Source: Amoebophrya sp. A120
Lineage: Eukaryota; Protista; Dinoflagellata
Direction: 5' to 3'
NCBI GenBank assembly: GCA_905178155.1
Contig: CAJINV010000050.1
Location: forward strand, 1-17,474
Length of the DNA: 17,474 nucleotides
A program made the translations under genes and the position numbers. The notes below the pieces were generated by a model. It was not told the origin of the DNA. It ran no database searches and worked only from the letters and a program-made list of their open reading frames with translations. The first letter of the stretch is position 1; each line of letters opens with the position of its first letter. Below, piece by piece: positions 1 through 17,474 of the stretch.

Positions 1-310
1 GCAAATCACACAAAACCCCCCCTGCTGATTTTTCCAACGCTGCAAAAAGCCGGCAAAAAAGCTGCCCGGTTCGACTCCGGAAACACTCTTGGAAGCTCTT
101 CGGGGTTCGGCTAGGTTTTTGGCGCTTCCGCGCGAAGGTTTTGCGGGTTGCAAATCACACCAAAACCCCCTCTGGTGATTTTTCCAACGTTGCAAAAAGC
201 CGGCAAAAAAGCTGCCCGGTTCGACTCCGGCAAGCAACTCTCTCGGAGGTTCTTCGGGGTTCGGCTAGGTTTTTGAAGTCTGTCTGCGAAAAGCGAAAGC
301 CCTTGCGGTT
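1..310. repeat. ~149-150 bp GC-rich tandem repeat, 2 copies visible, truncated by window start; each has a tRNA-type B-box
   Basis: GCAAATCACAC(C)AAAACCCCC...TGCAAAAAGCCGGCAAAAAAGCTGCCCGGTTCGACTCCGG...CTTCGGGGTTCGGCTAGGTTTTTG starts at 1 and 150; GGTTCGACTCC at 68-78 and 218-228. Confidence 0.9.
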
Positions 311-535
311 ATTCGTGCCCGCGAAGCCTGCAAGGTGCGCAGGGTGCCCTCGATAATTGTGGCGCCCGCGATTAGTGGGGCGGCGCCCCTGTATCTATAC
401 TCGATCGCCGGGTCCGTTTCTTCTAGTTACTTACTTAAATAGAAAAAAGGTAAAGGAGGCACCCTCGGTCGCCGTTTTCAATAAATCAATGCTGGCTTTT
501 GGAAGTAGGAGCCGGCCCGCCGCTTTTCGTAAATG

Positions 536-796
536 GTACACACGCGAGCGGGTGGTCACGGTGGCGGCCGAGACTGCGCGTCCGTCCGTCCGTGCGGCCT
601 TGGCCGGTATGCAAAGGCAAACAAAGGGCCTCGCTCATGCCTCCGTGTCTGTTGTGCTGCGTAAAAAAAAAGATGGCCCGGCCTCGCCAAGTGCTACGTT
701 GGTAGCGTTTGTTCTTCCTCGTGGAGAGGCCCCTCCTATCCTGTTCACCTTCTTGAGAGCGAGAGAACCCCTTGCCATGCAACTGTGCGCGTATAC
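536..796. mobile_element. tentative fold-back insertion, 261 bp
   Basis: GTACACACGC...GCGCGTATAC ends (weak inverted repeat), exact ATG/ATG flanks (533-535, 797-799); removal joins ...PPLFVN to DEGKEENRRESPGSPSNNMQLFGIHI in frame. Confidence 0.4.
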
Positions 797-1161
797 ATGA
801 AGGGAAAGAAGAAAACCGTAGAGAATCACCTGGGAGCCCCAGTAACAATATGCAGCTTTTTGGAATACATATAGTGGTAGAACTCCTTTTATCACACACG
901 CGCCGCCAGCAGTGAAGTTCCTTTTTCTGAATCACAACAAAGAGAAAACCGAGACAAATGAGAGCAGGCGTTTTTATGGTTAGGGTAAAGTGTAGCCAGC
1001 GCTATGACAGAGACAGAGAAGCTTTTAGTTCTGTGCGAAGATAATCCGCTACATAGTATCGGGATCAAGTACTAATACATAATCGCTGCAATTCGCTATC
1101 CTAGTTGTCTACTACCGCAGGTTTCTTCTGATACTCAGCCGCTGCAAAGATGTATAATCTT

Positions 1162-1519
1162 CTACGTAATGCAAATTCGTCTGAGTCTGGGAGGCATGCA
1201 AACCTTCATAATTGTGGAGTTGAGAAGAACAAGAAGCAACAGAAAAAGTTTCTTTTTCTTTTTCTATTGCCTCTTGTCCTTGTTCATTCCCAGTTTACTG
1301 TTTTAGTGCTGCATAAATGCACCCTGTTGTAATGCTGCTTACGCATTGGATCGGTGTATGAGAGGAGTAGCGTGGACGCGCAAATAAAAGAAAAGTATTG
1401 GTATTCATCTTGAATGAAAGAACTTATCATGCCTCGGTGGGTAGTGAAGTCGAAATCCGTGGCGCATGTTGAGACTACCGTTGCAAGTTTCCAGACCCAG
1501 ACGCATTTGCATCTGATTG
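1162..1519. mobile_element. fold-back insertion, subfamily A, 358 bp
   Basis: left CTACGTAATGCAAATTCGTCTGAGTCTGG vs reverse complement of right end CAATCAGATGCAAATGCGTCTGGGTCTGG; flanks CTT/CTC. Confidence 0.75.
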
Positions 1520-1604
1520 CTCCAGCAAAATCGTACTGGAGGAGCACCAGCTGCTGGCCTCCAGTTTCGGCCTGTCCTACTCCCGACAACCGAAACGCCG
1601 AATC

Positions 1605-1827
1605 GTATGCAAGACAGATTCGCTGTCCACACACAAAAGATAGCACGAAACCTGACACCCGGAGCACTTGCGATGGCATGTTGAAAACGTGCTAACCAAT
1701 GGAGTAGAAAGAGATTAGAATAAATCCTCAGCATTGAGAAGAGAACCTGTTTTGTAACGAGCATGCAGATAATGACATGTAAGCGCAGCCATTGGTTGTA
1801 CGTGTGCAGCGAAGTTGTAGTGGATAG
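1605..1827 (+). mobile_element. fold-back insertion with GT...AG termini (candidate introner), 223 bp
   Basis: left GTATGCAAGACAGATTCGCTG vs rc right CTATCCACTACAACTTCGCTG (15/21); flanks ATC/ACC; removal keeps frame. Confidence 0.7.
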
Positions 1828-1861
1828 ACCAGCGAATCACCCGTTTGGAGCAGCGCATGGT

Positions 1862-2211
1862 GTATCGAAGAAAAAAGCTATGTTTTTGTTTAGTGTGAGT
1901 GTCCTGTCTTGTAGAGCCACAGCATGCAAAGCAGTTTACTCACATTTGTCATGTTGGATAGGCATGGAGCCCTCCCCTTTTCAAATAGCCACTCACGTCG
2001 TACTAGTATACGCATGACACACCTTCTCATTTTCAGATAGGCATGAAGCACCTTTTGGTATCGGCATAGATAAATAGATAAAAGCCTATCGTGCCAAACT
2101 ATGTTTAGCACGATAGGCGGTCTATTTATCGTAATACCGGGCTGTAGGCTTCTCAATCTCATGCGGTCGCGCCAACAAACTTAAACTAAAAGAGTTTTTT
2201 TCCTGCGATAT
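1862..2211. mobile_element. fold-back insertion, 350 bp
   Basis: left GTATCGAAGAAAAAAGCTATGTTTTTGTTTAG vs rc right ATATCGCAGGAAAAAAACTCTTTTAGTTTAAG; flanks GGT/GGC; removal with one TSD copy restores heptad RMATAEN. Confidence 0.8.
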
Positions 2212-2410
2212 GGCCACCGCCGAGAACCGGGTCACAAACGTGGAGGGCTCCGTGGTAGGACTCTCAAACCGCATGAATACGGTTGAGAACCGAGTCGACA
2301 AGGCGGAGGGTAAGATTGGCATCCTCGAGATTGCCGCCGAGGAGACCAAAATTGCGCTCGAGGCGGACGAGTATAAGGCTATCCGATGCAAATATGTCAC
2401 GGACTGAAAA

Positions 2411-2696
2411 GTATGAACTGCAAATGTGTCCGGGTCTGGAGGCGTGGAGCTTGTGATGCTGTCTTGTTTGGATACTCATTATATATAACACCTGTATTGC
2501 ATGACCAGCTAGAAGAGTCCAGTTTGTGCTAGTACGCGGAGGGTGCATTTTTCATGCGGACTCGGCATCAGAAAGTGAAAGGGTTCTGGAAATCTGTGAT
2601 GCTAAGTCATGCAATACAGGCGTTATGGGTCATGCAAAATTATATGCATGACAAGCCTGGCAATCTTCCAGACCCAGGCATAATTGCAGTTGATAG
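2411..2696 (+). mobile_element. fold-back insertion, subfamily A, GT...AG termini (candidate introner), 286 bp
   Basis: left GTATGAACTGCAAATGTGTCCGGGTCTGGA vs rc right CTATCAACTGCAATTATGCCTGGGTCTGGA (24/30); exact AAA/AAA TSD; four GCATGAC/GTCATGC motifs inside. Confidence 0.85.
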
Positions 2697-2920
2697 AAAG
2701 CAGAAATGTCACTTCGTTGTAGTGCTCCGGATGGCGTCGCCAGTGGCTGTCAATCACGCCTCAGCAAGAGGTTGCGGCAGCAGGAGCTTCTCGCTCTGCT
2801 CGTTGCCAGAAAGTTTGTGGAGCCCAGTTGGTACTAAGTAGCCAAGGTGGCGACTGCACGTGCCAAGGCTCGTCTTGTTCAAGCATGACATGGCTTCAAT
2901 AATGTACACACACACACAGA

Positions 2921-3127
2921 GAAGAAGAGCTAGTGCAAGCTCTGCTTTCCGTGGCAGTGACGTATTTATATTGGATAAAGAAGATAGCCGCGCAGCTGAC
3001 GTCCCTTCGCTCCCGCTACTTCGCTGGGCCGGTGTTCGCCGAGATGCAGGAGGCATTGGAGTATCCTGATGAAAATTATGGAAACTACCCTAGAAATTGG
3101 CCACGCATGTTTGACATGATCAACTAG
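2921..3127 (+). pseudogene. protein-like fragment, possibly the 3' part of the 1150 gene after stops/frameshift
   Basis: EEELVQALLSVAVTYLYWIKKIAAQLTSLRSRYFAGPVFAEMQEALEYPDENYGNYPRNWPRMFDMIN*; preceded by a short (CA)n run that could have slipped. Confidence 0.4.
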
Positions 3128-3464
3128 CAACGCAGAGACTGTGCTTTATAATTCTTGCGCTCGGTCTCGGATAAGGATTGCATTACAAAATCGGGTAGTT
3201 GGAGATTTTCTCTCCGCATATCGGAAACGCGTTTGACATGCCCTGGACGACGGAAAACATCAGGGACCTACTTATGCATTGCAAAAGGATCGCACCACTA
3301 GCAATACATTTAGAGCGCACAACAATGGGAAGTAGCCTCCCAAGTTGAACACGAGGTCGCATCGTAAAGCTGCCTAAGGTACTTTGGTGCCAGACTTGTC
3401 ATGCAGTCCTGCAAGTAGTGTGATTGTGATATTATGAGTGCGATACTTTTGTGAAGAATACTTC

Positions 3465-3788
3465 CTATGCGGTGCAAACATGTCTAGGTCCACTCTGAGA
3501 CCCTGACTCGCGGTTGAATCAACAGGCAGCATCGTGTAGGATTGAAACAAGGATCCAAGCGAGCACATACATGACAAAACTCCAGAGCTGAGATGCCTAT
3601 ATACGTGGCGCGCATGATAGTTAAGTACGCAGCTCCTGTGCCTCTTTACATGACAAAAGTACAGGCACTGGCGCTGGCTAGACACCCAATGCAACACTGA
3701 CAGAGCCCCAGTGGGCAACAAGAACAGGCACCAGTACAACTGTGACGCATCCTCCTCTTGCAGACTCTGACTAGTTTGCAACGCATAC
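3465..3788. mobile_element. fold-back insertion, subfamily A, CT...AC (GT...AG on minus strand), 324 bp
   Basis: left CTATGCGGTGCAAACATGTCTAGGTC vs rc right GTATGCGTTGCAAACTAGTCAGAGTC; TSD not clear (TTC/TGA). Confidence 0.7.
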
Positions 3789-3790
3789 TG

Positions 3791-4336
3791 ATGCCCCGGA
3801 AGTTCTCGCGGGAAACGGCCCCGGACTGCATCAACGACGGCTCTGAGTCTCTCCCGGAGCAGAAGCAGGCGCTGCACGTCTGGAAGGAATACGTACTCGA
3901 GTCGAAGTCTGCCTGCGACAAGATTCTGTTCGACCAGAGCATCGCCATGTCGGAAACAGAAATCAAGGCGCTGCAGATGTGTAGCGACCTGATCGGAGAC
4001 TTCTGCGACGGACTGCAGATCAAGACGGGGGACAGCAAGAATTTAACCATCAACCAGCACGAGACCTTATGGAGGGGAAGGGATTGTCTTTCATCTCTCA
4101 CACAGAAAATGAAAACTGCATCAGCAACATCCTAGTCCTACAAAGAAAGAAAATAAAAGCTACACTGTCATACGCTTACGCACCGGCACGGCATTGGCAT
4201 GCTGTTTTTTCCTTACACACTGGAGCTTTTTTTGGCCAAGTAGAACAACTGCGGAAAGCCATTCGCTTCCCCTCCATACATAAAAACCACTGCGGATTGC
4301 GGCCCAGCTTCCCCGCCGGACGCGCCCTCCGCGTAA
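3791..4336 (+). pseudogene. coding fragment of unknown function split by insertion 4067-4279
   Basis: GC3-rich frame MPRKFSRETAPDCINDG...KNLTINQHET (3791-4066) continues in frame after the insertion as IKTTADCGPASPPDAPSA* (4280-4336). Confidence 0.55.
4067..4279. mobile_element. fold-back insertion, 213 bp
   Basis: left TTATGGAGGGGAAGGGATTGTCTTTC vs rc right GTATGGAGGGGAAGCGAATGGCTTTC (22/26); TSD degenerate (ACC/ATA). Confidence 0.85.
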
Positions 4337-4733
4337 GAACTCATCTACACGCAGCTGGAGCTGAAACTGTACGTCTCTTTATCACTCATCTTCCTTGTTC
4401 GTCTTCTACAACTACGCTAGGCAATCACGGACAACAACGGCGCAAAGAGAAAACGGACACCCACGTGGTTTCGCCGGTATATTGAGGAATTTACGTTAGG
4501 TTTGAGTTTGTGTTTGTCATGCATGATATTATCTCCTTCTTACGGAGGCGAGAAAAATTTAATTTTTTTGAAAGAAAATAGCCACAGATGCTTTTTTTGT
4601 ACCTTCATCTCGCCGATGCAAGAAATAATAAAATAAACTTCGGAGGTGGACGACTGTAGGGTCGACAGGTCGGGCGGTTCGAGACGAGATCGACAGGTCG
4701 GGCACAGGAACGAACTTCGTGAAAAACGTGTGT

Positions 4734-4980
4734 TTATCGGCTGCAAACATGTCGGGAGCTGGAAACTTTTGTTGCTCATACCGGGACTGCATGACGGCCA
4801 CTCAGACTGCAGAAGAGCAGGAATATGACTAAAGGACTCATTCGTATTTAGCATTACAAACTGCGATCCAGCATGACAAAAGGATTTGCCGCTCCTGCCA
4901 TTCATGCGTCACAGATCTTGCAGTTGTCCTTGAAGGTATCACATCACAAATCCAGGCCCAGACATTTTTGCAAGGCATAG
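4734..4980. mobile_element. fold-back insertion, subfamily A, 247 bp, ends ...GCATAG
   Basis: left TTATCGGCTGCAAACATGTCGGGAGCTGGA vs rc right CTATGCCTTGCAAAAATGTCTGGGCCTGGA; flanks TGT/GGT; GCATGAC at 4789 and 4871. Confidence 0.7.
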
Positions 4981-6405
4981 GGTGCTTGTCCGCTAACAGG
5001 TGTTGCAAAGATCACCACGATGTATTTTACACACCTTTTTCAATCACAGTGTGCACGGCATGACAGTTTTGGCAGCTGGCTGCAGAAGAACAAGAACATA
5101 AAAGTGGTGCATCAATGTCGTGCGAGAAGTAGATCTGCAGGGACAGTAGATACACGCAGACTTTGTCCAACGAAGCAAACACAATTGGACATTTCCATTT
5201 GAAGAATTTATAAAACGTCGTCAAGCATCTACTCCACTATCACTAGTCACACAAAAATTTACAGGTTTTAGAACAGAATTTTTTGATTACAGTAAGTACA
5301 CTCTTTCGCGAGTACAGGCAAAGCTCGTTCTAATTGATATCCATTGAAAAGCATGTGAAGTAGCGTGCATTTATTTTTTTGTATCTCAGATTCGGTACCA
5401 AGTCTTTGCAATTACGCTGTGTGCGCCTGTCCAATTGCAAAGATGATTGCGACTGCAGCAGCAGCTGGAATGAGAATTAGAACACGAAATACAGATAAGT
5501 CGTCCCATGTTGGCGGTTAAATTGGTAGCGACTGAAATTCAAATTGTAACTCATTGTATAGTAGCAGCAAGTGGCGCAAGAAGCGTCAATGCTTTCCCCG
5601 TATCGACGTCTTGGTCCGTAGACGTACAGAAGGGGACGAGCGCAGCCCCGAAACTGGGTCGCAAGCAGCAATTACTATTCTGGCAATATTACTTCTGCTG
5701 CGCTTGCGTGAGTGTTCAAAAATGAAGCTGCGGAACTCCGATAAAAAAATTCGGGCGCGTGTTGACGTTTTCTGTGTCTACGATAAGTGTCGAAGTTGTA
5801 AGATTTCGTGCGTCGCGCAAGAGCGTCCTGCGAGTCATGCGCCCCATGATTGACTATTTTCTCGGTTTTTCAATTCAGCAAATTTGCTTCGCGTGCTCCG
5901 CCGCACGATACAAACATAAATGTAACTTTTGTGCTACGCTTTCGAGCCTCGATCGTCCATCTATTTTTGTTCTGTAGCGATTTACGTGGGATTTCGTGTC
6001 GTCTGTGCATTGTGTTGTCGTTCTCGACCAAGATCTTTATTTGGTCTCTCGTGAAGCGGCATTGATTTTCGCGCACTTGATGAAGTACTAGACGCAGCTG
6101 CTGATTAGCGATTGAATTTACAACGCATCAAGATTGAGCAACATCGCGTACTCGACATGCGAAAAACTGAAATATTCTTCTCCGTTCGCAGATCGTTGAG
6201 TACAGTTTAGGGTGTCCTTAGAGAAGACTTCGTTTTTTGTTTCACCACGACTGAAGCCGAAGAGGAAAACATGCCTTTGCGTCAATCCTCGTCCCGGTCC
6301 CGACCTATTCCTCCTTAACCACGACAGCGCACGTTGTGCGCGCCGTGAAAGCTCAGCCGAAGTATACAACGACCACTAGGTACTAGTGTTGGATTCGCCA
6401 CTAAC

Positions 6406-7882
6406 ATGACGAGAAGAGACAATAATGGGGCGAGAGGATCCGCAGACCCGCCTCCCTCCGGTCGCGAAGTGGACGATGATGAAGAGGCGACGAGACAGAG
6501 GGAAGAGCGGATGCAAGCGCGGCGGCAACGATGCGACCAGCTTCTCGCGGTTGCGGACGGCGCGGAGGAGAACCGGGAAAACAAAGGGCAAACGCAACAG
6601 CAGCAGGAAGGGACAGCTAGCTCTACTAGCGCCAGCGGGCAAAGCCTGGGCCGGCATCCTGGTCCTCCGTCCGACCACGACGAAGCTACTTCCACCAAAT
6701 CTGTGTCCACGACGCCCTTGGAGGCCACGCAGAGCGGTGTGAACACGGATCCGGAGGACAAAACCGGCAGCCGCCTAATATGCATTGCAAATGTGATGTC
6801 TGGGGGTGGATCATGGGCGCATCAAGTTTGTCATGCCACGACTTGAGTTGGATTTCATTGTGCTTGAGCTTGTGGTGCATGTACAACAGAAAAACAGCCG
6901 CGCAGAAGAGAACTTTTGATGATCAAGAAGAGGACAGTAAGTGACTTTCCATGCAAAGTGGGCACTCTTGGGAAGTTCTCCAAAGAACTTGTCATCCAAC
7001 GGCCTGCGTTACAGAATTTTAGTTTTGCTAACTTCCGGACCACAAGTGGCACAGTTGTGAGTCTAGTTCAAAGACCTTCAGCAGTCGTGCTCCTGCAGAC
7101 CCCCCGGACATGATTGCAAAGCATACCTGCGCTCGCTGTATAGCAACACACTGCGGAAACTCAACAAGGACGTAGAGGACTCCAGAAGCAAGATAACGGC
7201 TGTGCATTCCCAAGTCCAATTTAGTTGGGATGAGGTTCATCGTGTCGTCGGTGACGGGCAGTGGGAGGTAGATCTCGTGCAGATGAAAGCTACAATCAGG
7301 AAGCTGGGCTACATGAATCAGGACCTGTGGCGACAGATTGACACCATTGCAGCCGGTCGGGGCCACGCCGCTGCCAATCCATCTGCGACTACTCGCGCAC
7401 TCATAATGAAGTTCAACAATGTATCCTATGTAAAAACGTCCCCACCCACGAATCAGAATCAAGAAGTAGATAGGGACTTTCCCATCAAAGTCATCAAGTT
7501 TATTTAAGTATAGTGCATGACAAATTTGATCTGATAGCGTAGTGCTGTTTAGCCTGTTCAACCGCATCGAAAATCCACTGCCTTGCACTTATTCCAGCAT
7601 GACGAGGAGCTCCAACAAATTACTAGCATTAGAAAAAAATATGTCCCCTGTCCTTGTGGCTGCGCATGAGAAAGATTTATTTTCGGCTCGCAGATTCATA
7701 GCATGACATTGACAACTTCTGGGCGGGAACGTTTTTACACAGAATACCAAAATCCTAGTTACTCTAGCCTGAAGGACGCCGTGAGTGCGGTGCAAGACGA
7801 TGTGGACGACGTGAAGGTTACCGCAGCTGAGCTGGAGACGAACTATGGTCGACTTTTTGAAGACTTATTCACTGGAAAGTAA
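6406..7882 (+). CDS. split hypothetical protein (~270 aa; low-complexity acidic N-terminus, helical C-terminus); segments 6406-6777, 7127-7426, 7742-7882
   Basis: Stop-free after removing two insertions: MTRRDNNG...DKTGSRL|LRSLYSNTLRKLNKDVEDSRSKITAVHSQVQFSWDEV...KFNNVS|EYQNPSYSSLKDAVSAVQDDVDDVKVTAAELETNYGRLFEDLFTGK*; second junction uncertain by 1 nt per side; may continue via a GT at 7879. Confidence 0.6.
6778..7126. mobile_element. fold-back insertion, subfamily A, AT...AC termini, 349 bp
   Basis: left ATATGCATTGCAAATGTGATGTCTGGGGGT vs rc right GTATGCTTTGCAATCATGTCCGGGGGGT; flanks CTA/CTG (both Leu codons in frame). Confidence 0.85.
7426..7742. mobile_element. fold-back insertion, ~317 bp
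   Basis: left CTATGTAAAAACGTCCCCACCC vs rc right CTGTGTAAAAACGTTCCCGCCC (19/22); three GCATGAC inside; TSD ambiguous. Confidence 0.85.
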
Positions 7883-8044
7883 CCGTTCCCAGCGAATTTG
7901 TCATGCAAGACATGTAGGTAAATTCAGTGTTTGTCATGCATAATGCAGGAAATGCAGGAGGGAATGGCCAATTTTCAGGGAATAAGACCACTCGGCGGAG
8001 GATGGAGCGCCGATGTTCGTGATTCAGCAGGTCGGTCTCTTCCA

Positions 8045-8287
8045 GTATGGCGTTCTCAAATGTTACATTCACAACTGTTACATGATTTGTCATGCAAAAA
8101 CACTATCGCTCTTACTTCACACGATCAAGCCTTCTCCGCATGACAACTTCTCGTCGCGCTAGATAGCATTATAATCTGCTCCAAACCTGTAATGCAAAAG
8201 GCCCAATCTTTTCCCTTTCACTTTTGCCGTTTTTGCATGACAAATTTCATGTAACAGTTGAGAGTGTAACGTTTGAGAACGCCATAT
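8045..8287. mobile_element. fold-back insertion, subfamily B, 243 bp, ~56-bp TIRs
   Basis: GTATGGCGTTCTCAAATGTTACATTCACAACTGTTACATGATTTGTCATGCAAAAA (8045-8100) inverted at 8230-8287; exact CCA/CCA TSD. Confidence 0.95.
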
Positions 8288-8758
8288 CCACCAGAATCTC
8301 CAGCAGCAACTGCTCCTGCTTGAGCAGAGCATGGAAACAAACAAGAAAAAGTTACTACGCCTGCAGGGGAACAAGGGCCCAGTTGCAGAGGACGCACTAC
8401 ACGCGCCACAAGGATCATTTTCGGCTGCACACGACGTCGACGGAGGACAAACCAGTAGCAAAATTTCCCTTGCTGGGGCTAAAGTCACCAAAAATGCAGC
8501 ACACCGCCTGTCGGCCAGCAAAGGTTCGGCACTCACAACGGCGCCCAGCAGCCGAAACAGTAAGAGCAGTATTCTCGGCGAGGACGGCAGTACAGCAAAT
8601 TTCGACGACGAAGATTTTGAAATCGAGGATTCGAGCTCCGATACCGCAACTGAGAACAGAGCAGGTGGAAGCAAACTCGCTATGCTGAACAGGGGGCACA
8701 TGCAGCTACAGTCCCATGCGGACGACGAAGATGTTCCGAATTCGAGCTGTGGCGAATC

Positions 8759-8966
8759 GTATGCGTTGCAAATAAAGTATCGTGGTGCTCCGTGCCAGTG
8801 GAAGCTGCATTGCAATTATTACTTTGTTTGTAGAACAGAAATGCTGTTTGTCATGCGAGTTTAGGTGGAAAGAAGCAAATCTGTTAGACATCACGTCCGG
8901 TAGCGGTACTGAATTGCTCGTGCCCTTCTCGGCCTCGGGGTGCGATACTTCTTCTGCAAGGCATAA
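8759..8966. mobile_element. fold-back insertion (A-related), 208 bp
   Basis: left GTATGCGTTGCAAATAAAGTATCG vs rc right TTATGCCTTGCAGAAGAAGTATCG (19/24); exact ATC/ATC TSD; TTTGTCATGC at 8847. Confidence 0.85.
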
Positions 8967-9186
8967 ATCGATTTTGTCTACAATTTCCTGCGGATGCTGC
9001 CGCCGGAAACGGTACAACGCCTCCAGGAGCTTCGGCTCGACCTGTTTGGCTGGAGTACAGTCACCCTGGTTCATCCTGTTGTACCCGTTCCTTCTCTATT
9101 ATGGTCGCGCTCCGTGGGAAATCGCCTTCGGCACAGTGGAAGTTTTTTGTGGTTCTTATGCATGATGAGTTCAATGTCAATCGTTG

Positions 9187-9468
9187 CTATGTAGTGCAAA
9201 CGGACTTTTTATTCAAGTTCAAGTATCAAAGGAGCTTCTGCTGTACCTCTTGCATGCCTGAAAGAAAAATCTGTGTTGCATAGCCAGCAAAGACGGCGGT
9301 TTTGTGCTATTCATACTTGAGGGGCAATTTGTCGTGATAAGCGTGCTAAACATCGGGCTGCGTCAAATGAACTTGTCATGCTGGGGTGCGCTTGAAAGCA
9401 CTAGAAGTACCCACTCTGTAGCATCACAAATTTCATCCCAACCCAGACGACATATATACAAGGCATAG
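9187..9468. mobile_element. tentative degraded subfamily A insertion
   Basis: right end CCCAACCCAGAC...CAAGGCATAG resembles the 4980 end; left CTATGTAGTGCAAA is only a weak partner; no TSD. Confidence 0.35.
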
Positions 9469-9816
9469 TGTCAGTGGTCAGGCAATGCCTGCAACCATTT
9501 CCTGCTCCAATTTGTTGTCGATTTTCCACGCGGCGCTTCCATATTCACGGAATTTACCTCTACTGCAGCGGCTTCGGCGATCTGAATCAGAGCAGGAAAG
9601 GCGCAAAAAGGCAGGTACAGGGAATGTTGATTCATCGGCGTCATTGATTACCAGCACCCTTCGTGTTTTTTCTGCTCGTCCTCGTAGTACTGGTACTAGA
9701 AGAATCTCCTGCACGAAGGTGGGACAGTCGTTGTCTTTTGTTCCCAGAAATGTGTTCAAAAATCTGACTTCCGACAGGTCCGAGCCCCTCGCTCTCCTCT
9801 TTCTCGGGTGGCGAGG

Positions 9817-10065
9817 ACGTTACCCGGACGGCTTTCCGCTCAGGTTTGTTATGATTCGGATCTGGATGTTTTTCGTCGTTACGTCGAAGGAGGTGGAGTT
9901 CTAGCGCCATTGAACCGGGAAGGTGAATCACGGAAGGAAGAACTCCCGGGTGCGGCAGAGCCTACTGCTGGCGCTGTCACAGCAATGCAGGAAGAGGGGG
10001 CTGTGGTCGATGAGGCGCGAGGTCTGCAGGCGTTGGACAACAAAGTAGTGAATTTTGATTGCTGA
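9817..10065 (+). pseudogene. probable exon fragment upstream of the 10220 frame
   Basis: LPGRLSAQVCYDSDLDVFRRYVEGGGVLAPLNREGESRKEELPGAAEP...; pyrimidine-rich acceptor TTTTCTTTTGCAG ends at 10194. Confidence 0.4.
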
Positions 10066-10414
10066 GAGGCCTGTTTCGTACAATTGGTCATTTCGCAATA
10101 AAAGTGATCTATCAGGTGCTGCATAAGCTTCCATACGACGTGTTGATGAAGTTCGTGTTCTTCGTGAACGATCTCGTTTGATTTTCTTTTGCAGCTCCAG
10201 GTCCAGGGAAATAATCTAGTACCTGATCCTGCAGCATCTTCAAGAGAATGAAAATACAATACTTCTCGTCCAGGTAGCAAACCTCACACTGTGGCTGGAT
10301 GAGTTTGCGGGGACCTATGAAGCCAAATGGACAGCGGCGCTCGACGAGTACAAAACGGCGTGGAAGGAAGTGCTGGATAAGTACATGAGCGGAAGCCTGG
10401 AACCAGCGCTCGAT

Positions 10415-10681
10415 GTATCAAATGCAAAAGTGTCTTGGTCTGGAAGAATGCAACTTGTGATGCTGCATTTGGATGTCTAGTAGAAAATTTGTGCTGCATG
10501 AGCAGCAAAAGCAATCTAATTTTCGCTATGCGGAGAGGGCATTTGTCATGCGGAATAGGCATCAAGAATCCATTAGAAAACCTGGGATGCTAGTGCACAC
10601 ATCACGGACATCATGGCGCATGTAAACCGTGCGTGACACGTCTCAGAATCTTCCAGACCCAGACACTTTTGCATTCGATAC
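10415..10681. mobile_element. fold-back insertion, subfamily A, 267 bp, GT...AC
   Basis: 33-bp TIR GTATCAAATGCAAAAGTGTCTTGGTCTGGAAGA vs rc GTATCGAATGCAAAAGTGTCTGGGTCTGGAAGA (31/33); exact GAT/GAT TSD. Confidence 0.95.
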
Positions 10682-10860
10682 GATGAGGCGCGCAACAAAA
10701 CCAAAAAGCTCTTTGACGAGTCCAAGAAAAAAATGTATGACGAGATCAAGAACGACTTGATTGAATTAGCGAAGCGGATTGAAGAAGGCGAAAAGATCGC
10801 GAAAGAAAAAGCAAAGAACGCCACCCAGCAGCTAATACAATTGGGCAACGAACTATTTCA

Positions 10861-11138
10861 CTATGATGCTCTCAAACGTTACACTGATTGTTGTTACTCA
10901 CCTGGTCGTTCTGTGATACAAGGTAGCAAAAGGGACAGGGCAAAGGCAGGGCGGATGCGGAACCTTAGACGTTTCGAATTACAGACCCGGCACAGATTTA
11001 TGTAAGTGCTATCCATCACTTTTTTCGAGAATTTGTTATGGGAAGTCGCTTGGTTATGTGGATGGTGATGTGGGTCGCGACATTTGTCGAAAAAATCATG
11101 TAACAGCAAAGAGTGTAACGCTTGAGAACTCCATATTA
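10861..11138. mobile_element. fold-back insertion, subfamily B, ~278 bp
   Basis: left CTATGATGCTCTCAAACGTTACACT vs rc right ATATGGAGTTCTCAAGCGTTACACT; TCA/TCA flanks with a 2-nt offset. Confidence 0.85.
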
Positions 11139-11630
11139 TCAGCTAGAACGCGGCCGGCTTGCGCTAGTCCTTGCTGCCTACGACGGAATCCGCAAGCAAC
11201 TTCGACTCTGTCTAGCAGGCGGCATGGTAGTCTTAACAAGCTGTGTAAGTCGAGGTTTTCGTTCTGATCAGTTTCAGTGCAGAGCGGTCTCGGAACAACG
11301 ATGACTGTTACTGTTTATCAGCTACACAGAAAATGACCTTCGTTTTGTAGTTTTTTCGGACAAAAAAGCATCGTCAAGAAAAACAAACACCTTCTACCAC
11401 AGGATCCTTTCTCGGAAGCACGACCGGCTACCGGTGTTGGCTGTCTTGGAGTCGAAACTTTGCTTCTTCCACTTCCATCGATTTCTTGAAGTACTTGGTC
11501 GTCCAGAACAAATCCAGGTCAGACGAGATTCCTGGTGAGGCTGCACTTCTACCCCATCTTTTACTTTTACATCATCGTGACCCGACAAGAAGACAACATT
11601 GTAAAAAATTAAATGAAACAGCAATCCCTG

Positions 11631-11907
11631 ATATCAATTGCAGATGTGTCTGGGTCTGGAAGATTGCAAGAGTTGTTATGCGTATTTGCATCAGCATGAC
11701 CCAACATGTAGTTATCTGTGAAGGTGCGTGGATGTTGCTCAAGCATCACAGATTTGGTGACAGCCTCCTGATGCCTATATCACGAGCAAAATGACCTCTC
11801 AGCGTAGCGAAAAGTGGACTCTCCCCGCTTCTCACGCAATACAGATTTTGCACAATCCAAAGGCTGCAGCTGCACCTTGCAGGCCCAGATATATTTGCAC
11901 TGTATAC
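11631..11907. mobile_element. fold-back insertion, subfamily A, 277 bp, AT...AC
   Basis: left ATATCAATTGCAGATGTGTCTGGGTCTG vs rc right GTATACAGTGCAAATATATCTGGGCCTG (20/28); flanks CTG/ATG. Confidence 0.8.
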
Positions 11908-12858
11908 ATGTGTATACTTGAGTTTAATTTTTGCCATGCAAAATGCGAGAACATCTACTTACATCAGCGACAAGAGACCACGGGCACCTTGAACGTAAAC
12001 ATCTTGTTTCTGAAAGCTGCGGACTTTTCTTAGTCTAACCGGACGATCACACCAACTGATTTTGCGATGGAAGCACTCCTGGTGCATCGGTCATAGAAGA
12101 TTCACACTTCACCCAGCACAACAAGTGCAGGTTTGCAGTTGATTTCCGCTCCCCGACCACGACCAGTACCAGATCTTCGTGTTCGCGTTTTGACAAGAAT
12201 AAACCTCATTTCGAGGATTTGTTGTCATTGTTGTTCTAATGGATCGATTCGGTTTTGCTTCCGTTTTATTCACCATTCTCTCCCTGGCAAAACAAGTGTC
12301 GCCTTTGATACGAAGCCCGCTCCTGCAGCATTTTCCACCCCGTCGGTAATGAATATGATCGGTGGAGGGCGAGGGCATTGCCTCACTCGGTTTCCCTACA
12401 GGGATTGACGCAGTGGTCGTTGTAAAGTACGACGAAAAATGTCGAAAAGTGCAGCGTATAAAAATATCATTCAATATCACATCTTAGATTGTGGTTGTGC
12501 CACTGCTCTTGCGGGACCGTCGACCTCTTGTAATTTCTCTGCAGCTCGTGCTCGGTCTCATGTCAACATAATAATACAGAAGTATTTTACTTCATTCGGG
12601 AACATCGGTTTCTGCCTTAATATCTTCGAATAGTCGTGAGATATTTCTTTCTTTCATGTCGTGTGGTGGGTCGTGTGTCTCTGTCTGTGTCGTAGCTTGT
12701 CTAGCGACTGCAGTGGAAGCGTCGCGATTACGCCTCTCATTTGTGGGCTCTCTGGGTGTGCTACCAAATTCTACAGCATCATCTATAGTGGAAAGAAAAG
12801 TTTTAAAGATATCTTCCAAATGATGCAGCAAATAGGCGCGTCGTCGTCCGAAGTATAT

Positions 12859-13126
12859 GTATACCATAGTATGATTTGCACCATGTTCATGTTGCTCTCA
12901 TGAAAAGAACAACAATTATATTCCACATCTCATTCTTGCGACTGACAATGAAAAAAAAAAAAAAACAGCTAGAAGTACGGCCATCCTGGTACTAATTTTT
13001 TTCCGAAGATTATATATGGTAGCCATAAAATGTTGCGCGCACGAGAGCTCAGAGCTCGTCTTTTTTCCTTTCCAGTCCTAGGTAGCGCACCGCAACTTAT
13101 TGGGAGGATTTAGCACTCTCGTATAT
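12859..13126. mobile_element. tentative fold-back insertion, 268 bp
   Basis: left GTATACCATAGT vs rc right ATATACGAGAGT; flanks TAT/TGT; removal gives RYLPNDAANRRVVVRSI|LSLLRFVVFAQRFFDRTTKNAG. Confidence 0.4.
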
Positions 13127-13279
13127 TGTCACTTTTACGCTTCGTAGTATTTGCACAGCGCTTCTTCGATAGAACAACAAAGAATGCCGGGTAACGCAAA
13201 CAGTGGAGCAAGGAAGAAAGAAAATCCAACTTTGTCCACCCAGCGTTGGCAAAAATGGAAACAGGAAGACGAAGAAAAA

Positions 13280-13532
13280 GTATGGCATTCTCGCACTTTA
13301 CGCTGACCATTGTTACGCGATTTGTCATGCCGAATAACGGGCACCCTGTACGCGATCCAGTAGCTTCTACTTGGTGCGCTAGATCGTTTTTTTTGAATCA
13401 GTGCCAAATCTGTAATGCACGAGGCGCAAGACCATGACCAGGACCCCACACCCTTCCCGTTTTTGAATTGCATTTCAGTACAAAATTATGCAAGAGCAAC
13501 CAGTGTAGGTGTAGTGTGGGAGAATGTCATAA
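13280..13532. mobile_element. fold-back insertion, subfamily B, 253 bp
   Basis: left GTATGGCATTCTCGCACTTTAC vs rc right TTATGACATTCTCCCACACTAC; AAA/AAA flanks; TTTGTCATGC at 13321. Confidence 0.85.
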
Positions 13533-13546
13533 AAAAAAGCAGAGAA

Positions 13547-13839
13547 ATATGGGAGTGTCAGGATTGAACTCGACAAAGTTGAAATAACTTGCAACGCCTA
13601 AAATCAATACCAGTCGGAAGCTCAATTTTTCAGCCGCGCATGACAAATTTGAGCAGCGTATAAATCCAGCTTGTCATGCTATTTCGGGACAGAATCAGAA
13701 GGCGTCTTTTATCATGCTCCCAAACAGGCTGACAGTCGGCCTCACTTGCCATCCCTGTAAGGGAGGCATTTCATGCCTTGCAATTTATGCATGACAAATT
13801 ATTTCAACTTTGTCGATTTCGGTCCTGACGCTTCAATCA
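13547..13839. mobile_element. fold-back insertion, 293 bp
   Basis: left ATATGGGAGTGTCAGGATTGAACTCGACAAAGTTGAAATAA vs rc right TGATTGAAGCGTCAGGACCGAAATCGACAAAGTTGAAATAA; flanks GAA/GCA. Confidence 0.9.
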
Positions 13840-13921
13840 GCAACAGTGGCAGGAGGACGAGCGAGCGTCCGAACAGACGATCATCGGACTCATGCGGATT
13901 TTTGTTGGTTTTTATCAATTC

Positions 13922-14206
13922 CTATGCAACAAGAAAAAAACTGTGTAGAAGGTTTACCCTTGTGTTGCGCTGACGATACAAACTAGTATACGCTTGTCAT
14001 GCTTGTTGACATGGATGATACCTAGCATCACGCATGCTTTTACTTTTACGCGCTACTTACGCATGAGAAGATTCTGTTGGCATCCATGCCTGGTTGTCTG
14101 GCGGAGAAGCATGACAACAAAAATTGTGAAGATTTCTGAGACAGATAATTGCCCATGCTGTGTTCTGCTCAAAGAGTTACGCCAACACAATTTTTTTCTT
14201 CAATAA
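13922..14206. mobile_element. fold-back insertion, 285 bp
   Basis: left CTATGCAACAAGAAAAAAACTGTGT vs rc right TTATTGAAGAAAAAAAATTGTGT; flanks TTC/TTG; motifs at 13996 and 14109. Confidence 0.6.
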
Positions 14207-14817
14207 TTGCGAAAGCTCCAAACCTAGCATTGGTACTCGGCGCTCCACCAGCCGTGGTCAGCATCACGGAAGCGGGTGCAGCCTCGTCAGCCTGAAGAAG
14301 CCACGCTCTGTATTACATCTCCTAGACACCGTCTTGATGGTGAATTTGATATGCCCCTGCACATTTCTCCAACAAACTCAAACAGAAGATTTCCTCGCTC
14401 CTAGAGAAAAATTCTGGGTCACGACCTTTGCATAATGAATGTACATCTCCCGACTTGCTAGGCATGTTTTGTCATTTGTGTATTGATAAGAACCTCGTCT
14501 GTTTCATTCTTTTTCTGGGAGTCTCGGTCCTGCTTTACAACCTGCTGTACAACGACAACAAGGGGTATCACATACAAACATGTCTGTGCTCTCTGGAGCA
14601 AAGCAAACTTGCAAATGGTACGCTGACAGGACAGAAACATTTTTCATGTGTCTGCGAAAACCTACAGGAACTTGTTCTGTCTTTTACCCAAGAAGGCTTT
14701 CCTTTCAAAATTGTCATGCTTAATACAGTCAGTCCGATACTACCATTGTGGTATCACGTTTCTGCGGATCCAGACATCTTCGCAATGCATAATGACGATG
14801 AAGTGGCCGAGGAGTGG

Positions 14818-15945
14818 GTATGACGGCGTCAACGTACCCAACAAGCATCGCACCCAAGGGGATAAAATTTTTTTTTTTCACAGTAAACGAATTAGATATA
14901 GTTAATTTCGCTACTTAAAGTGCATTAGTTTATTTCATGTGAATTAGCTATGTAAAAAAGACGGCTTTTACGGGTTGCCGGGTGCTAGATCGCCGATATC
15001 CAGCTCGACGGATTCACCGCGGAACCCTAGCAAAAAAACGAGGAAGTGCCCCATGGCGTGGCGTCTGTCTACTGCCCGCGCTTTCCATTGTGCGTGGCCT
15101 GTGGGAGGTTTGGCGCAGCTAGCCGCATCCAGGGGATAGCTGACGGCAAGCCGGCACGGTAAACACGCAAAGCCGCGCGCCCTGCTTATGAGAAAAGGCT
15201 GAGCAGCGTGCCATCGGTTGCCAGGGGGGGTTTCGCCAAAAAGCACCCGCAAGCCAAGTGCAACATGGTCCGCAGGCCGCGGCCTGCAGGGCCGCAGGCG
15301 CGAGGCGGGGGCGCGAGGGGGGTCCGCGGAAGGGGGTCCACGCAGGGCCTCCCGTAGGGCATATTTTTTCCCCTAGCCCCGATGCTGTGGTCGTTTTGTC
15401 CCTTGTCAAAAAGGGAGCATCTCGGAGGGGCATCGCGGACGGGGATCCCGCACTCTCGTGTTGTCCTGTGTGAGGTTAATCTGCCCAGGTAGGAACACAA
15501 CGAAGCCGGGGCAATTTGGATAGCCTCACAAAATGGCTCCCAAGCTCGGCGGAAAGTGGCAGCAAGGCGCAAACAAAACACAGAAAACGGCGGCAAGGTG
15601 CGACACGGCCGTCGCAACTACGTCGTCCTGCTGCCTCGCCACAGGAAGCTGGCCGCCGATCCTCTGCCCCGTGCGCCGCTTCGTGCACTATCTGCGCCAC
15701 GCCTTCGTGTGCAGTATCCCGGCGCCCCTGCGTGGAGACAACCGAGGCGAATCCGTGGAGCTGGATATCGGCGATCTGGCACCCGGCAACCCTTCGAAAA
15801 CGTCTTGTCTAGCTACTTAATCATCTACCCATTTCAATTAAGTACTTGATATAGGTATTTTACCGGCCAGTCCGGCACTAGTTGAAACTTTTTTTTTGAT
15901 CCTTTATGGGTGAGTTGCCTCTTGGGTACGTTGACGCCGTCATAG
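14818..15945 (+). mobile_element. fold-back insertion with GT...AG termini (best introner candidate), enlarged by a nested element
   Basis: left GTATGACGGCGTCAACGTACCCAACAAGCA vs rc right CTATGACGGCGTCAACGTACCCAAGAGGCA (23-bp perfect core); exact TGG/TGG TSD; phase-0 join HNDDEVAEEW|WDDAGYKANRAKSYQELMATIDR*. Confidence 0.95.
14972..15792. mobile_element. nested GC-rich non-autonomous TIR element (true ends may extend to 14919-15811)
   Basis: 51-bp inverted repeats 14972-15022 / 15742-15792 (GGGTTGCCGGGTGCTAGATCGCCGATATCCAGCTC..., 4 mismatches); sharp GC rise; no transposase ORF; GCTACTTAA direct repeat at 14910-14918 and 15812-15820. Confidence 0.85.
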
Positions 15946-16029
15946 TGGGACGACGCTGGTTATAAAGCCAACCGAGCGAAGTCATACCAGGAGTTGATGG
16001 CAACAATAGACCGCTAAACAGTCGTCGTG

Positions 16030-16760
16030 AGTTTTACTTTTACTTTGTCGTGGTTTTTTCACTTTTTTTCGCGTAATTCTTTTCAGGAAACTTTTCTTCT
16101 CATTGTCATTTACGAAGATCTGACACAGCTGAGCTTCGTCTACACGTTCCTTTTCTTCACATATCTTTCATTCCCGTGGGCGTCATATTCCGGCACTTCG
16201 AGTAATGAAGATGTCTTTTCAAAGAACAATATATTGATAAACAAAAACTACTAAAACACTATATCAAAGAGGAACAGTCGCCACACTATTTGTGTGTGGC
16301 CTTTTCTTCTTACCGAAGAGGGCCGTCGCCTTTTTTCCCTGCCTCGGACAATTGACTGAGAGAGTCGCTTCTTGTTTGAAAGGTCCTGCACCTGTCGATG
16401 TAGATTCTTGCAGCACCAGAGGGAAGTCGGTCTTGTCCTCTGTTATGGAAATCATTGAGTCACACGTGCTGTCGTTTGTTGGAGAGAAGGTCAATTTATT
16501 GTTGTTGCACGGAGCTCGTCGGTCATCTCTCCTCGTTCGGCAAGTGGTTTGCAACTTTACTCAATAGTGTGCGTGATACACTGATCAAAATTCTCGAGAA
16601 AAGCGGCCCGATTTGGAAACCGTGTCGCTATTGTCAAATCGCTTTTCGTTTGTCTCGAACCAATTCGGCGTTGCGCGCAGCCCTTCTCGTTGTGCTCGCT
16701 AAGGGTCGTGAACTTGTGACCTTGTCTGTCCCGTCTGAATTGTCACTCAAAACGACACTG
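16030..16760 (-). pseudogene. possible decayed minus-strand coding region
   Basis: K/R/S/T-rich frames (e.g. 16264-16554) broken by several stops; no recognisable domain. Confidence 0.25.
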
Positions 16761-17048
16761 TAAACAAGCATCAATCCAATGCTGTGGATGTTGGTGCTGC
16801 CGACGACGGACGGCGCATATGAAGTTAGTAGAGCTTAAGAGCGTACTACGGAGAGTGAGTGAGGGCGAGTGGAGCAAAGTTGGAAAATTGTTCTTGCTAC
16901 GACAATCGTTGTAGTAGTTACTTACTTAAATGTGTGATATGGTCAAGTGTCACAGCATAGAGCTTCTTGTACGTCGTCGCTCCGGCTAAGATTCCACACG
17001 AGGTTCTATTTGGATTACTACAGTTTTATTAATTACGATTGCAGAAAT

Positions 17049-17474
17049 ATGCGCGGTCGGACGAGACCCCGGAGGGCGCAGTGGGCCGCCCTAGCAACAT
17101 CACACGAGAGAATGACTGCGCAGTTGCAAGCTAGCAACAGCACAAATCCCCCCGCGGGGTTGGCGTCGACGAAAGAACAGCCGGCTAGTGGTAGAAACAG
17201 CACAAACCCGCCCGCGGAGTTGGCCCCGGCTAAGGAAGATGAAGCGGTATCCTGTGCAAAAGTATCATACTCGTAGTAATTGCAGTCATGCATTACAAAT
17301 CTCCTTTCCAAGGTAAAACAGCATGACAAATTTTATTTCTCATGCTGAGCAAATTTGTCATGCAATTTATACTAGTACGAATAGGATGCTTTTGCAATGC
17401 ATAAACGGCTGGTGGCAGCAACAGCACAAAGACAAACCCGCCCGCGGAGTTGGCCCCGGCTAAGGAAGATGAAG
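17049..17474 (+). CDS. partial low-complexity repeat protein, split by insertion 17247-17404, runs off the window
   Basis: MRGRTRPRR...ASNSTNPPAGLASTKEQPASGRNSTNPPAELAPAKEDEA|TAGGSNSTKTNPPAELAPAKEDE; acceptor-like TTGCAG ends at 17044. Confidence 0.55.
17136..17474 (+). repeat. ~60-bp coding tandem repeat (3 copies)
   Basis: AACAGCACAAA...CC(C/G)CCCGCGG(G/A)GTTGGC at 17136, 17196 and 17420; 34+ bp identical between copies 2 and 3. Confidence 0.9.
17247..17404. mobile_element. fold-back insertion (A-related), 158 bp
   Basis: left GTATCCTGTGCAAAAGTATCATACTCGTAGTA vs rc right TTATGCATTGCAAAAGCATCCTATTCGTACTA (24/32); flanks GCG/ACG; motifs at 17285, 17321, 17354. Confidence 0.85.

Follow-up and report, generated by a model that had tools for sequence, protein, structure and literature searches.

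Introns without the usual GT-AG ends are a described feature of the syndinean dinoflagellate Amoebophrya. According to the available text of Farhat et al. 2021 (BMC Biol 19:1, PMC7789003), more than 60% of the RNA-seq-validated introns of strains A25 and A120 are not GT-AG and show no preferred end dinucleotides, and a subset of these, termed introner elements (IEs), carry inverted repeats of 8-20 nt at their ends and direct repeats of 3-5 nt over their borders. For A120 the same text gives a mean length of 240 nt for non-canonical introns and an inverted-repeat motif of TAT, seven variable bases and at least three A, sitting 1-5 nt from the splice sites; the exact border and the removal mechanism are called unknown there, and "singleton" IEs are allowed. 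Here we describe a gene of this kind in a 17,474-nt stretch of Amoebophrya sp. A120 (assembly GCA_905178155.1, contig CAJINV010000050.1, positions 1 to 17,474 of the forward strand; hereafter the window). The gene, at 6406-11146, encodes a 695-amino-acid orphan protein and is interrupted near its start by two insertions, beginning at 6778 and 7421, that a sequence-only reading had singled out. We conclude, with a probability of about 90%, that both insertions are introner-element-type non-canonical introns of A120 that are removed at the RNA level, with the site of removal likely set by a hairpin. Introns of this type and the A120 motif are already known, and the gene model is annotated and public as a deposited protein (P0001 below).

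The agreement with the described Amoebophrya IEs, as far as the accessible text of PMC7789003 describes them, covers borders, ends, repeats and size. The borders are not GT-AG and use no fixed dinucleotides (AT..TG in the first insertion, intron 1, and GT..AA in the second, intron 2), and both introns have inverted end repeats capable of forming a hairpin, of 12 nt and 28 nt, respectively. The A120 motif of TAT, about 7 nt and AAA was observed in introns 1 (TAT-GCATTGC-AAA), 2 (TAT-CCTATGT-AAAAA), 5 (TAT-GCGTTGC-AAA) and 9 (TAT-CAAATGC-AAAA) of the gene, and introns 4, 5 and 9 have border repeats, of 3-5 nt in the published class, without any mismatch (CCA, ATC and GAT). Sizes in this gene range from 124 to 449 nt, compared to the A120 mean of 240 nt; as in the published class there is no transposase, both intron types occur in one gene and the host gene is poorly conserved. 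The organism is also the same, by the name on the 100% identical protein P0001. We found nothing substantial that differs, except that diverged repeat copies here fix the distance from repeat to cut at 1 nt on the 5' side and 4 nt on the 3' side (12 of 12 introns, among the joints listed).

Introns of transposon origin are described elsewhere, and the locus compares less closely to these. The introners of Micromonas, Aureococcus, Polarella and Symbiodinium are, in the available parts of PMC7789003, PMC11282704 and PMC12130899, likewise non-autonomous DNA transposons that turn into introns when they insert, bearing inverted ends and target-site duplications, and in those spliced canonically the mRNA is also restored by removing the element together with one copy of the duplication. 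However, canonical-splice introners use GT or GC with AG and the normal spliceosome, whereas none of 15 introns with TAT...ATA ends in the window ends in AG and their first base varies. The introns of Fritillaria borealis derived from miniature inverted-repeat transposable elements (MITEs) are similarly transposon-derived, not GT-AG and efficiently removed by the host, but they have set borders (AG-AC, AG-AT) for which the spliceosome is held responsible (PMC11282704, in the part available); no such border pattern was observed here. The nonconventional introns of euglenids, as that review presents them, share variable non-canonical borders, pairing ends that bring the exons together, junction repeats like target-site duplications, a likely MITE origin and coexistence with conventional introns. 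They belong to an unrelated lineage, the host here being a syndinean dinoflagellate, and their pairing motif (CAG/CTG at +4..+6 and -8..-6) is absent here, intron 1 having TGC at +4..+6 of its donor sequence ATATGCAT. Circular excised RNA has been shown in Euglena (PMC11282704), while the evidence at this locus consists of contigs.

Assembled contigs from several sequencing runs were aligned to the window. Runs X1 and X2 contained 97% of the words of 1001-11000, runs X3 to X6 contained 34-41% and run X7 contained 24%. Two contigs, of 2858 nt in X3 and 2873 nt in X4, started at 6133 and 6111, respectively, and joined 6133/6111-6777, 7130-7420, 7751-7859, 7984-8040, 8287-8754 and 8966 onward, thereby skipping both insertions and three further introns; the sequence-only reading had called for transcripts of this form, and they were found in these RNA-like contigs. 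The joined form was the sole or dominant form there. P0001, a deposited 695-aa protein named "unnamed protein product [Amoebophrya sp. A120]", is 100% identical to the translation of the second exon (7130-7420) and matches the window letter for letter on 11 exons over 6406-11146, ending in TAG at 11144-11146. The resulting features are as follows, with shared letters being the number of letters at a joint that make its cut position ambiguous (0, unambiguous) and a slash marking a joint.

6406-11146, + strand: coding sequence (CDS) of the 695-aa orphan protein, from the P0001 mapping; first five exons joined in X3 and X4
6406-6777, 7130-7420, 7751-7859, 7984-8040, 8287-8754 and 8966-9098, + strand: exons 1-6, from the P0001 mapping
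9548-9614, 9778-10044, 10274-10414, 10685-10860 and 11140-11146 (including TAG), + strand: exons 7-11, from the P0001 mapping
6778-7129, + strand: intron 1, 352 nt, AT..TG; joint 6777>7130 in X3 and X4, 0 shared letters
7421-7750, + strand: intron 2, 330 nt, GT..AA; joint 7420>7751 in X3 and X4, 0 shared letters
7860-7983, + strand: intron 3, 124 nt; joint 7859>7984 in X3 and X4, 5 shared letters; LFED/HSAED in P0001
8041-8286 (equally 8045-8290), + strand: intron 4, 246 nt; joint 8040>8287, 4 shared letters
8755-8965, + strand: intron 5, 211 nt, TAT...ATA type with perfect ATC repeat; joint 8754>8966, 5 shared letters
9099-9547, + strand: intron 6, 449 nt, TAT...ATA type, inverted repeat 9100-9124 / 9519-9543; placed by inverted repeat and cut rule (below), reproducing P0001
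9615-9777, + strand: intron 7, 163 nt, GT-AG; one of 10 equivalent placements giving P0001 (cag/GTACAG...GACAG/gtc)
10045-10273, + strand: intron 8, 229 nt, GT-AG; one of 7 equivalent placements giving P0001 (aaa/GTAGTG...GTCCAG/gta)
10415-10684, + strand: intron 9, 270 nt, GTATCAAATGC...GCATTCGATAC plus GAT; placed by inverted repeat, boundary reproducing P0001
10861-11139, + strand: intron 10, 279 nt, TAT...ATA type; placed by inverted repeat, boundary reproducing the ...LFHS end of P0001 with its stop

We infer that X3 and X4 are RNA from the lie of their contigs over the whole window. Both had zero depth over 12244-12826 and 14576-15741, where the DNA-like run X7 has depth, both held an unspliced piece of low depth next to its spliced counterpart (3452-3821, described below), and one contig in each (depth 112.8 and 108.4) removed 4067-4282 (TT..TA), 4476-4644 and 4732-4981 together. 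The middle of these three reads GT..AG if the cut is shifted one base to the right (4477-4645), and it has no terminal stem. Joint removal of an ordinary GT-AG intron and the unusual ones is expected of RNA but not of rearranged DNA. A contig of X1 (word depth 46.8), by comparison, was colinear with 6100-8069 and uncut at the inserts beginning at 6778, 7421 and 7860.

These observations bear on the alternative, also named by the sequence-only reading, that the inserts are excised from DNA in the RNA-producing cells, the "spliced" contigs then being rearranged DNA. The internal eliminated sequences of ciliates offer the comparison, being transposon-derived inserts in coding sequence with short repeats at their bounds and precise removal. 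The elements here do resemble cut-and-paste transposons in their inverted ends and target duplications, the product does equal a precise excision, and X3 and X4 are not recorded as RNA. However, ciliate sequences are cut from DNA, while here the inserts are missing from the transcript-like assemblies and kept in the DNA-like ones: no X1 contig carried the joints 6777>7130, 7420>7751 or 7859>7984, and a low-depth contig of X7 spanned 7748-7970 uncut. X3 and X4 also lack the silent stretches that X7 covers and remove the GT..AG intron within the same contig, and the introns published for the organism were validated by RNA-seq in the available account (PMC7789003). DNA excision is thus not supported and we regard it as very improbable, the contigs being compatible with rare excised molecules.

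Joining of the exons also restores a long reading frame. The exon lengths of the 695-codon CDS total 2088 nt, and the frame remained open across all ten joints, while retention of any one of the ten introns brought an in-frame stop within 48 codons (at codon 22 for intron 1). Such a frame, together with stops on retention, makes the joined form likely the one that the cell translates. The junction peptides of P0001 (KTGSRL/RSLYSNTLRK, MKFNN/NPSYSSL, GRLFED/HSAEDG and QQVGLF/HQNLQQ) correspond to the same junctions as the contigs. The G+C content was 55% in exons and 43-44% in introns. Eight of the ten introns are non-canonical with hairpin ends and two can be placed as GT-AG; intron 10 splits the codon of the second-last residue. 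A phmmer search of P0001 against 1.84 billion representative proteins found no other protein at E <= 0.001, and P0001 was also the only match to exon 2 in a word-indexed search of longer proteins. These searches thus yielded no ortholog or paralog for comparing nonsynonymous to synonymous substitution rates (dN/dS) or intron positions. None of the 96 open reading frames (ORFs) of at least 75 aa in the window scored above the Pfam cut-off, which argues that the elements carry no transposase. We also observed that a hydrophobic stretch of P0001 (WFILLYPFLLYGIYLYCSGF) straddles the exon 6/7 junction and that its C-terminal part is rich in charged residues.

The open frame also bears on whether the joints might be artefacts of reverse transcription (RT) template switching over a hairpin or of assembly collapse, the inserts then being gene-killing insertions in a pseudogene. 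Hairpins with short flanking repeats are the classic setting of RT jumps, and some of the joints do share 3-5 nt. In contrast, joints 6777>7130 and 7420>7751 share no letters at the cut, the joined form was the only or dominant one in the contigs, and a 695-codon frame open across ten joints, with retained introns bringing a stop within 48 codons, would be expected only if the joined form is the one translated. We consider such an artefact highly unlikely.

The sequence-only reading had proposed a stop-free ORF of about 270 codons, ending at 7882, across both insertions. Its stop (7880-7882) lies inside intron 3, and the CDS instead has 695 codons in 11 exons and continues to 11146. The letters it quoted are correct (AT at 6778-6779, AC at 7125-7126, CT at 7426-7427 and AG at 7741-7742), but the boundaries drawn from them, 6778-7126 and 7426-7742, are not those of the contigs, which remove 6778-7129 and 7421-7750. 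Joining the pieces at those boundaries gives 372+299+140 = 811 nt and a frame that breaks at the second junction, as had been conceded; small shifts restore it. Because the flanking ORFs (6349-6846, 7067-7507 and 7670-7882) reach past the insert borders, an open frame results from very many choices of boundary, and the lack of stops by itself is weak evidence. Listing the frame-keeping pairs with GT, GC or AT starts and AG or AC ends gave very many and was without evidential value.

A second argument of that reading concerned the repeats flanking the insertions. CTA (6775-6777) and CTG (7127-7129) do flank the first insert, as read from the sequence, and their synonymous difference, along with that of CTT and CTC at an insert placed at 1162-1519, had been taken as a sign of selection after insertion. 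However, the latter insert is removed as 1162-1522 (X3/X4 joint), and the mRNA keeps only the upstream copies, CTA and CTT (1159-1161); CTG and CTC are intronic and never translated, so the argument fails, and two third-position differences would in any case arise by chance about 1 time in 9. The first junction peptide is correspondingly GSRLRSLYSNTLR, with one Leu, in the joined contigs and in P0001, rather than the GSRLLRSLYSNTLR with two that had been expected. The broader suggestion of removal by non-canonical, structure-guided splicing was of the right family: the inserts lack GT-AG signals, have ends capable of pairing and leave the frame intact when removed.

We next describe the architecture of the individual introns. 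Intron 1 is made up of an element (6778-7126) and the repeat copy that follows it, CTG (7127-7129); the copy ahead of the element, CTA (6775-6777), remains in the mRNA. The intron carries the inverted repeat TATGCATTGCAA, 12 nt with one mismatch, at 6779-6790 and 7114-7125; the X1 word depth over it was at baseline. Intron 2 consists of the element GTATCC...GAATAC (7421-7747) plus CAA (7748-7750), with an inverted repeat of 28 nt that is 86% complementary (7421-7448 / 7720-7747). The X1 word depth was 2932 over 7378-7448 against a baseline of 46.8 (about 60x), suggesting that the 5' arm of intron 2 is moderately repeated in the genome. Intron 3 has a different inverted repeat, CTTATTC.../...GAATAAG (7864-7890 / 7960-7986), and a 5-nt direct repeat, AAGAC, that leaves its cut ambiguous by 5 nt; as it lacks the TAT...ATA end, more than one element family interrupts the gene. 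The inverted repeat of intron 4 is 40 nt and 93% complementary (8046-8085 / 8247-8286), with a perfect CCA repeat, and X1 word depths of 85293 over 8017-8087 and 19853 over 8088-8158, relative to the same baseline, indicate a family that is very abundant in the genome. Intron 9 has a 33-nt inverted repeat, 94% complementary, with a perfect GAT repeat. A blastn comparison of introns 1-3 to the window returned only their own inverted arms and matches to an 18-nt motif. Over the window as a whole, 22 TAT...ATA inverted-repeat pairs with a spacing of 80-1300 nt were observed, whereas 20 shuffles gave 2.6 on average and never more than 6.

A single rule described the cuts: the intron begins one base before TAT and finishes four bases after ATA. 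It held in all 12 RNA-supported TAT-type introns among the joints listed, six of which have no positional ambiguity, and also in all three introns known only from P0001 (9099-9547, 10415-10684 and 10861-11139). The element can accordingly be written N-TAT...ATA-N with a 3-bp target duplication, and the intron as the element plus the next three bases; the downstream copy of the target site is thus lost with the intron and the upstream copy kept (12 of 12), so that the mRNA recovers the sequence that preceded insertion. With the cuts placed in the phase of the rule, the 15 TAT-type introns start with GT (8), TT (4), CT (2) or AT (1), and none ends with AG (0 of 15). Where the first intron base was A, C or T instead of G the cut position was unchanged. 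The fixed distances of 1 nt and 4 nt go slightly beyond the "1-5 nucleotides" stated in the text of PMC7789003, whose figures and tables may already show them.

Such cuts are difficult to attribute to ordinary splicing at cryptic GT-AG sites or to U12-type AT-AC splicing. The U12 donor consensus is RTATCCTT, and the 5' ends ATATGC and GTATCC bear a superficial likeness to it; many frame-keeping GT/GC/AT..AG/AC pairs also lie near both inserts. The observed cuts are, however, unambiguously AT..TG and GT..AA, and the 3' cut of intron 1 falls 3 nt beyond ..ATAC. No snRNA was found in the window by Rfam, where there were no matches of any kind at gathering thresholds (the tRNA scan of the window was likewise empty), a result that is uninformative on the genome. 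The minor-spliceosome snRNAs U11, U12, U4atac and U6atac, as well as U1, are reported absent from the organism in the available text of PMC7789003. We regard this explanation as very improbable, the least likely of those weighed here.

The inverted ends could also place the cuts through structure. In the proposed mechanism, small transposon-like elements, non-autonomous and bounded by terminal inverted repeats, would have inserted into the gene and would now leave at the RNA level, their ends being able to pair into a hairpin that likely determines their removal. Minimum free energy (MFE) folds of 13 of 14 non-canonical introns closed with at least 15 pairs between the first and last 30 nt, while the GT-AG intron 4477-4645 had no terminal pairs in its MFE fold. 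The fold z-score relative to dinucleotide shuffles was -2 or lower in 11 of the 14 non-canonical introns, reaching -11.6 for intron 4. The MFE fold of intron 1 includes the terminal stem; in that of intron 2 the base with which the intron begins, 7421, is paired to 7747, and CAA immediately ahead of the 3' cut stays unpaired. No excess of bulge-helix-bulge-like pairing was observed between the flanking exons at the cut (mean of 2.2 pairs in 6 nt versus 2.25 expected). We thus observed removal at exact positions, a preserved frame and ends with the potential to form stems; that the stem also positions the cuts is our favored interpretation and would be somewhat more probable than its converse.

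For the enzyme, an adapted spliceosome without U1 is about an even proposition. It is favored by the roughly half of the elements that start with GT, by the near-complete set of spliceosomal proteins reported and by the presence of both intron kinds in one gene; an ordinary spliceosome is disfavored by a cut that does not depend on which bases begin and end the intron, by the lack of AG and by the reported absence of U1. A route independent of the spliceosome, in which the hairpin would be cleaved at its base by a structure-specific endonuclease and the exons sealed by a ligase, is a possibility to which we would give somewhat less than even odds; it competes for the enzyme step only. Precedents are tRNA and HAC1-type splicing, and such a route is suspected for the euglenid nonconventional introns, which leave as circles, according to the part of PMC11282704 available. 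This route would account for the lack of a required terminal dinucleotide (GT, TT, CT or AT starts and 0 of 15 AG ends in the TAT-type introns), for unchanged cutting when the first base is A, C or T, and for the fixed distance of both cuts from the stem. It would not account for the GT start of about half of the elements, which is like a 5' splice site, and nearly all spliceosomal proteins along with U2, U4 and U6 are reported present in the available texts of PMC7789003 and PMC11282704, both of which favor an adapted spliceosome lacking U1. The 2024 review PMC11282704 and the 2025 survey PMC12130899 treat the Amoebophrya elements as known, and in the portions available neither of these nor PMC7789003 reports an excision enzyme.

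Several points weigh against the conclusion that both insertions are hairpin-defined introns removed from RNA. X3 and X4 carry the label "RNA?" as a guess only and are not RNA by record, and they derive from the same sample and so constitute a single observation. P0001 may rest on data related to X3 and X4 and is therefore not independent of them, and the coding status of the 695-aa orphan rests on frame length and transcript evidence. The joints rest on assembled contigs, which cannot reveal strand, lariat, circle or rare variants; 30 further joints lie outside the 15 listed. Raw RNA runs X8, X9 and X10 carry the same species label, but X8 and X9 gave 0 reads on 6100-8200 and X10 gave 14 partly fitting reads there, on repeats only, so none of the three offers a test of expression. 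The fold z-scores of introns 1 and 2 are modest, at -2.1 and -2.3, and were matched by 4 of 100 shuffles, and their direct repeats match at 2 of 3 bases (CTA/CTG) and 1 of 3 (AAT/CAA), respectively; both look like old copies whose direct repeats have decayed. The count of 12 introns leaves out 7860-7983, with its different inverted repeat, 1162-1522, with degenerate ends, and the GT..AG intron.

Introns of the same kind were observed in an upstream gene on the same strand (1150-5571), where a 253-codon open frame extends over seven non-canonical introns. From the ATG at about 1150 it encodes 247 aa (ATGTATAATCTT just before 1162), and the frame ends in the exon at 4283-4475. One of its introns is as follows.

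1162-1522, + strand: upstream-gene intron, 361 nt, element plus downstream CTC, with CTT (1159-1161) kept; joint 1161>1523 in X3 and X4, 1 shared letter

Introns 4476-4644 (readable as GT..AG) and 4732-4981 lie beyond the end of this frame, in the putative 3' untranslated region of the upstream-gene contig. Nested and adjacent elements were also observed. The 603-nt intron 2379-2981 holds two inner inverted-repeat elements (2412-2695 and 2495-2616) and is removed as one unit, and the adjacent elements 3273-3460 and 3466-3787 leave as one 520-nt intron (3272-3791) whose cuts lie at the outer ends of the pair. In X3 and X4 the spliced form (depth 46.7 and 46.3) was accompanied by an unspliced piece of low depth, 3452-3821 (6.9 and 9.3); this colinear contig suggests a retained or intermediate form of 3272-3791. 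Further along, the pair 14819/15944, with 38-nt arms, encloses a second pair at 14997-15767.

The 9-mer TTGTCATGC (often TTTGTCATGCA) occurred 51 times in the window with at most one mismatch, compared to 6.0 expected. There were 23 exact copies (for example at 6828, 7515, 7898, 7931, 8087, 8138 and 8235), of which 16 lie inside RNA- or annotation-supported introns, including one in the GT..AG intron 4477-4645, and the other 7 fall in 13280-14743, a region with inverted-repeat predictions only; no exact copy was observed in an exon. Thirteen were in the plus and ten in the minus orientation, and such use of both orientations is more readily explained by a signal acting in DNA, for instance a binding site for transposase, than by one acting in RNA. 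Judged from its distribution, this intron-confined and orientation-free motif could be the DNA-level handle of a transposase. It had no match in the supplementary text file of PMC7789003 and, like the cut rule, goes slightly beyond the text of that paper, whose figures may still show the motif. At the left end of the window (1-300) we observed tandem-like units of about 150 nt (11-83 and 161-233, 95% identical), and at the right end (17142-17474) identical 43-mers (17202-17244 and 17432-17474) flank an element at 17245-17405 whose joint was observed in X3 only, among those listed.

The case is a rediscovery, from sequence alone, of one of the oddest known intron systems, and it adds no new kind of thing to it. 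Cuts that are measured from the hairpin instead of being read from sequence would point, tentatively and on balance doubtfully, to structure-specific "precise excision" machinery acting on RNA, whether independent of the spliceosome or a radically altered form of it. If that were true, such machinery would undo transposon insertions in RNA and could in principle be common to the euglenid nonconventional introns. If the cut rule holds genome-wide, it would provide a precise, testable geometry for the excision machinery of Amoebophrya sp. A120 and could serve as a simple rule when genes are predicted in this organism.

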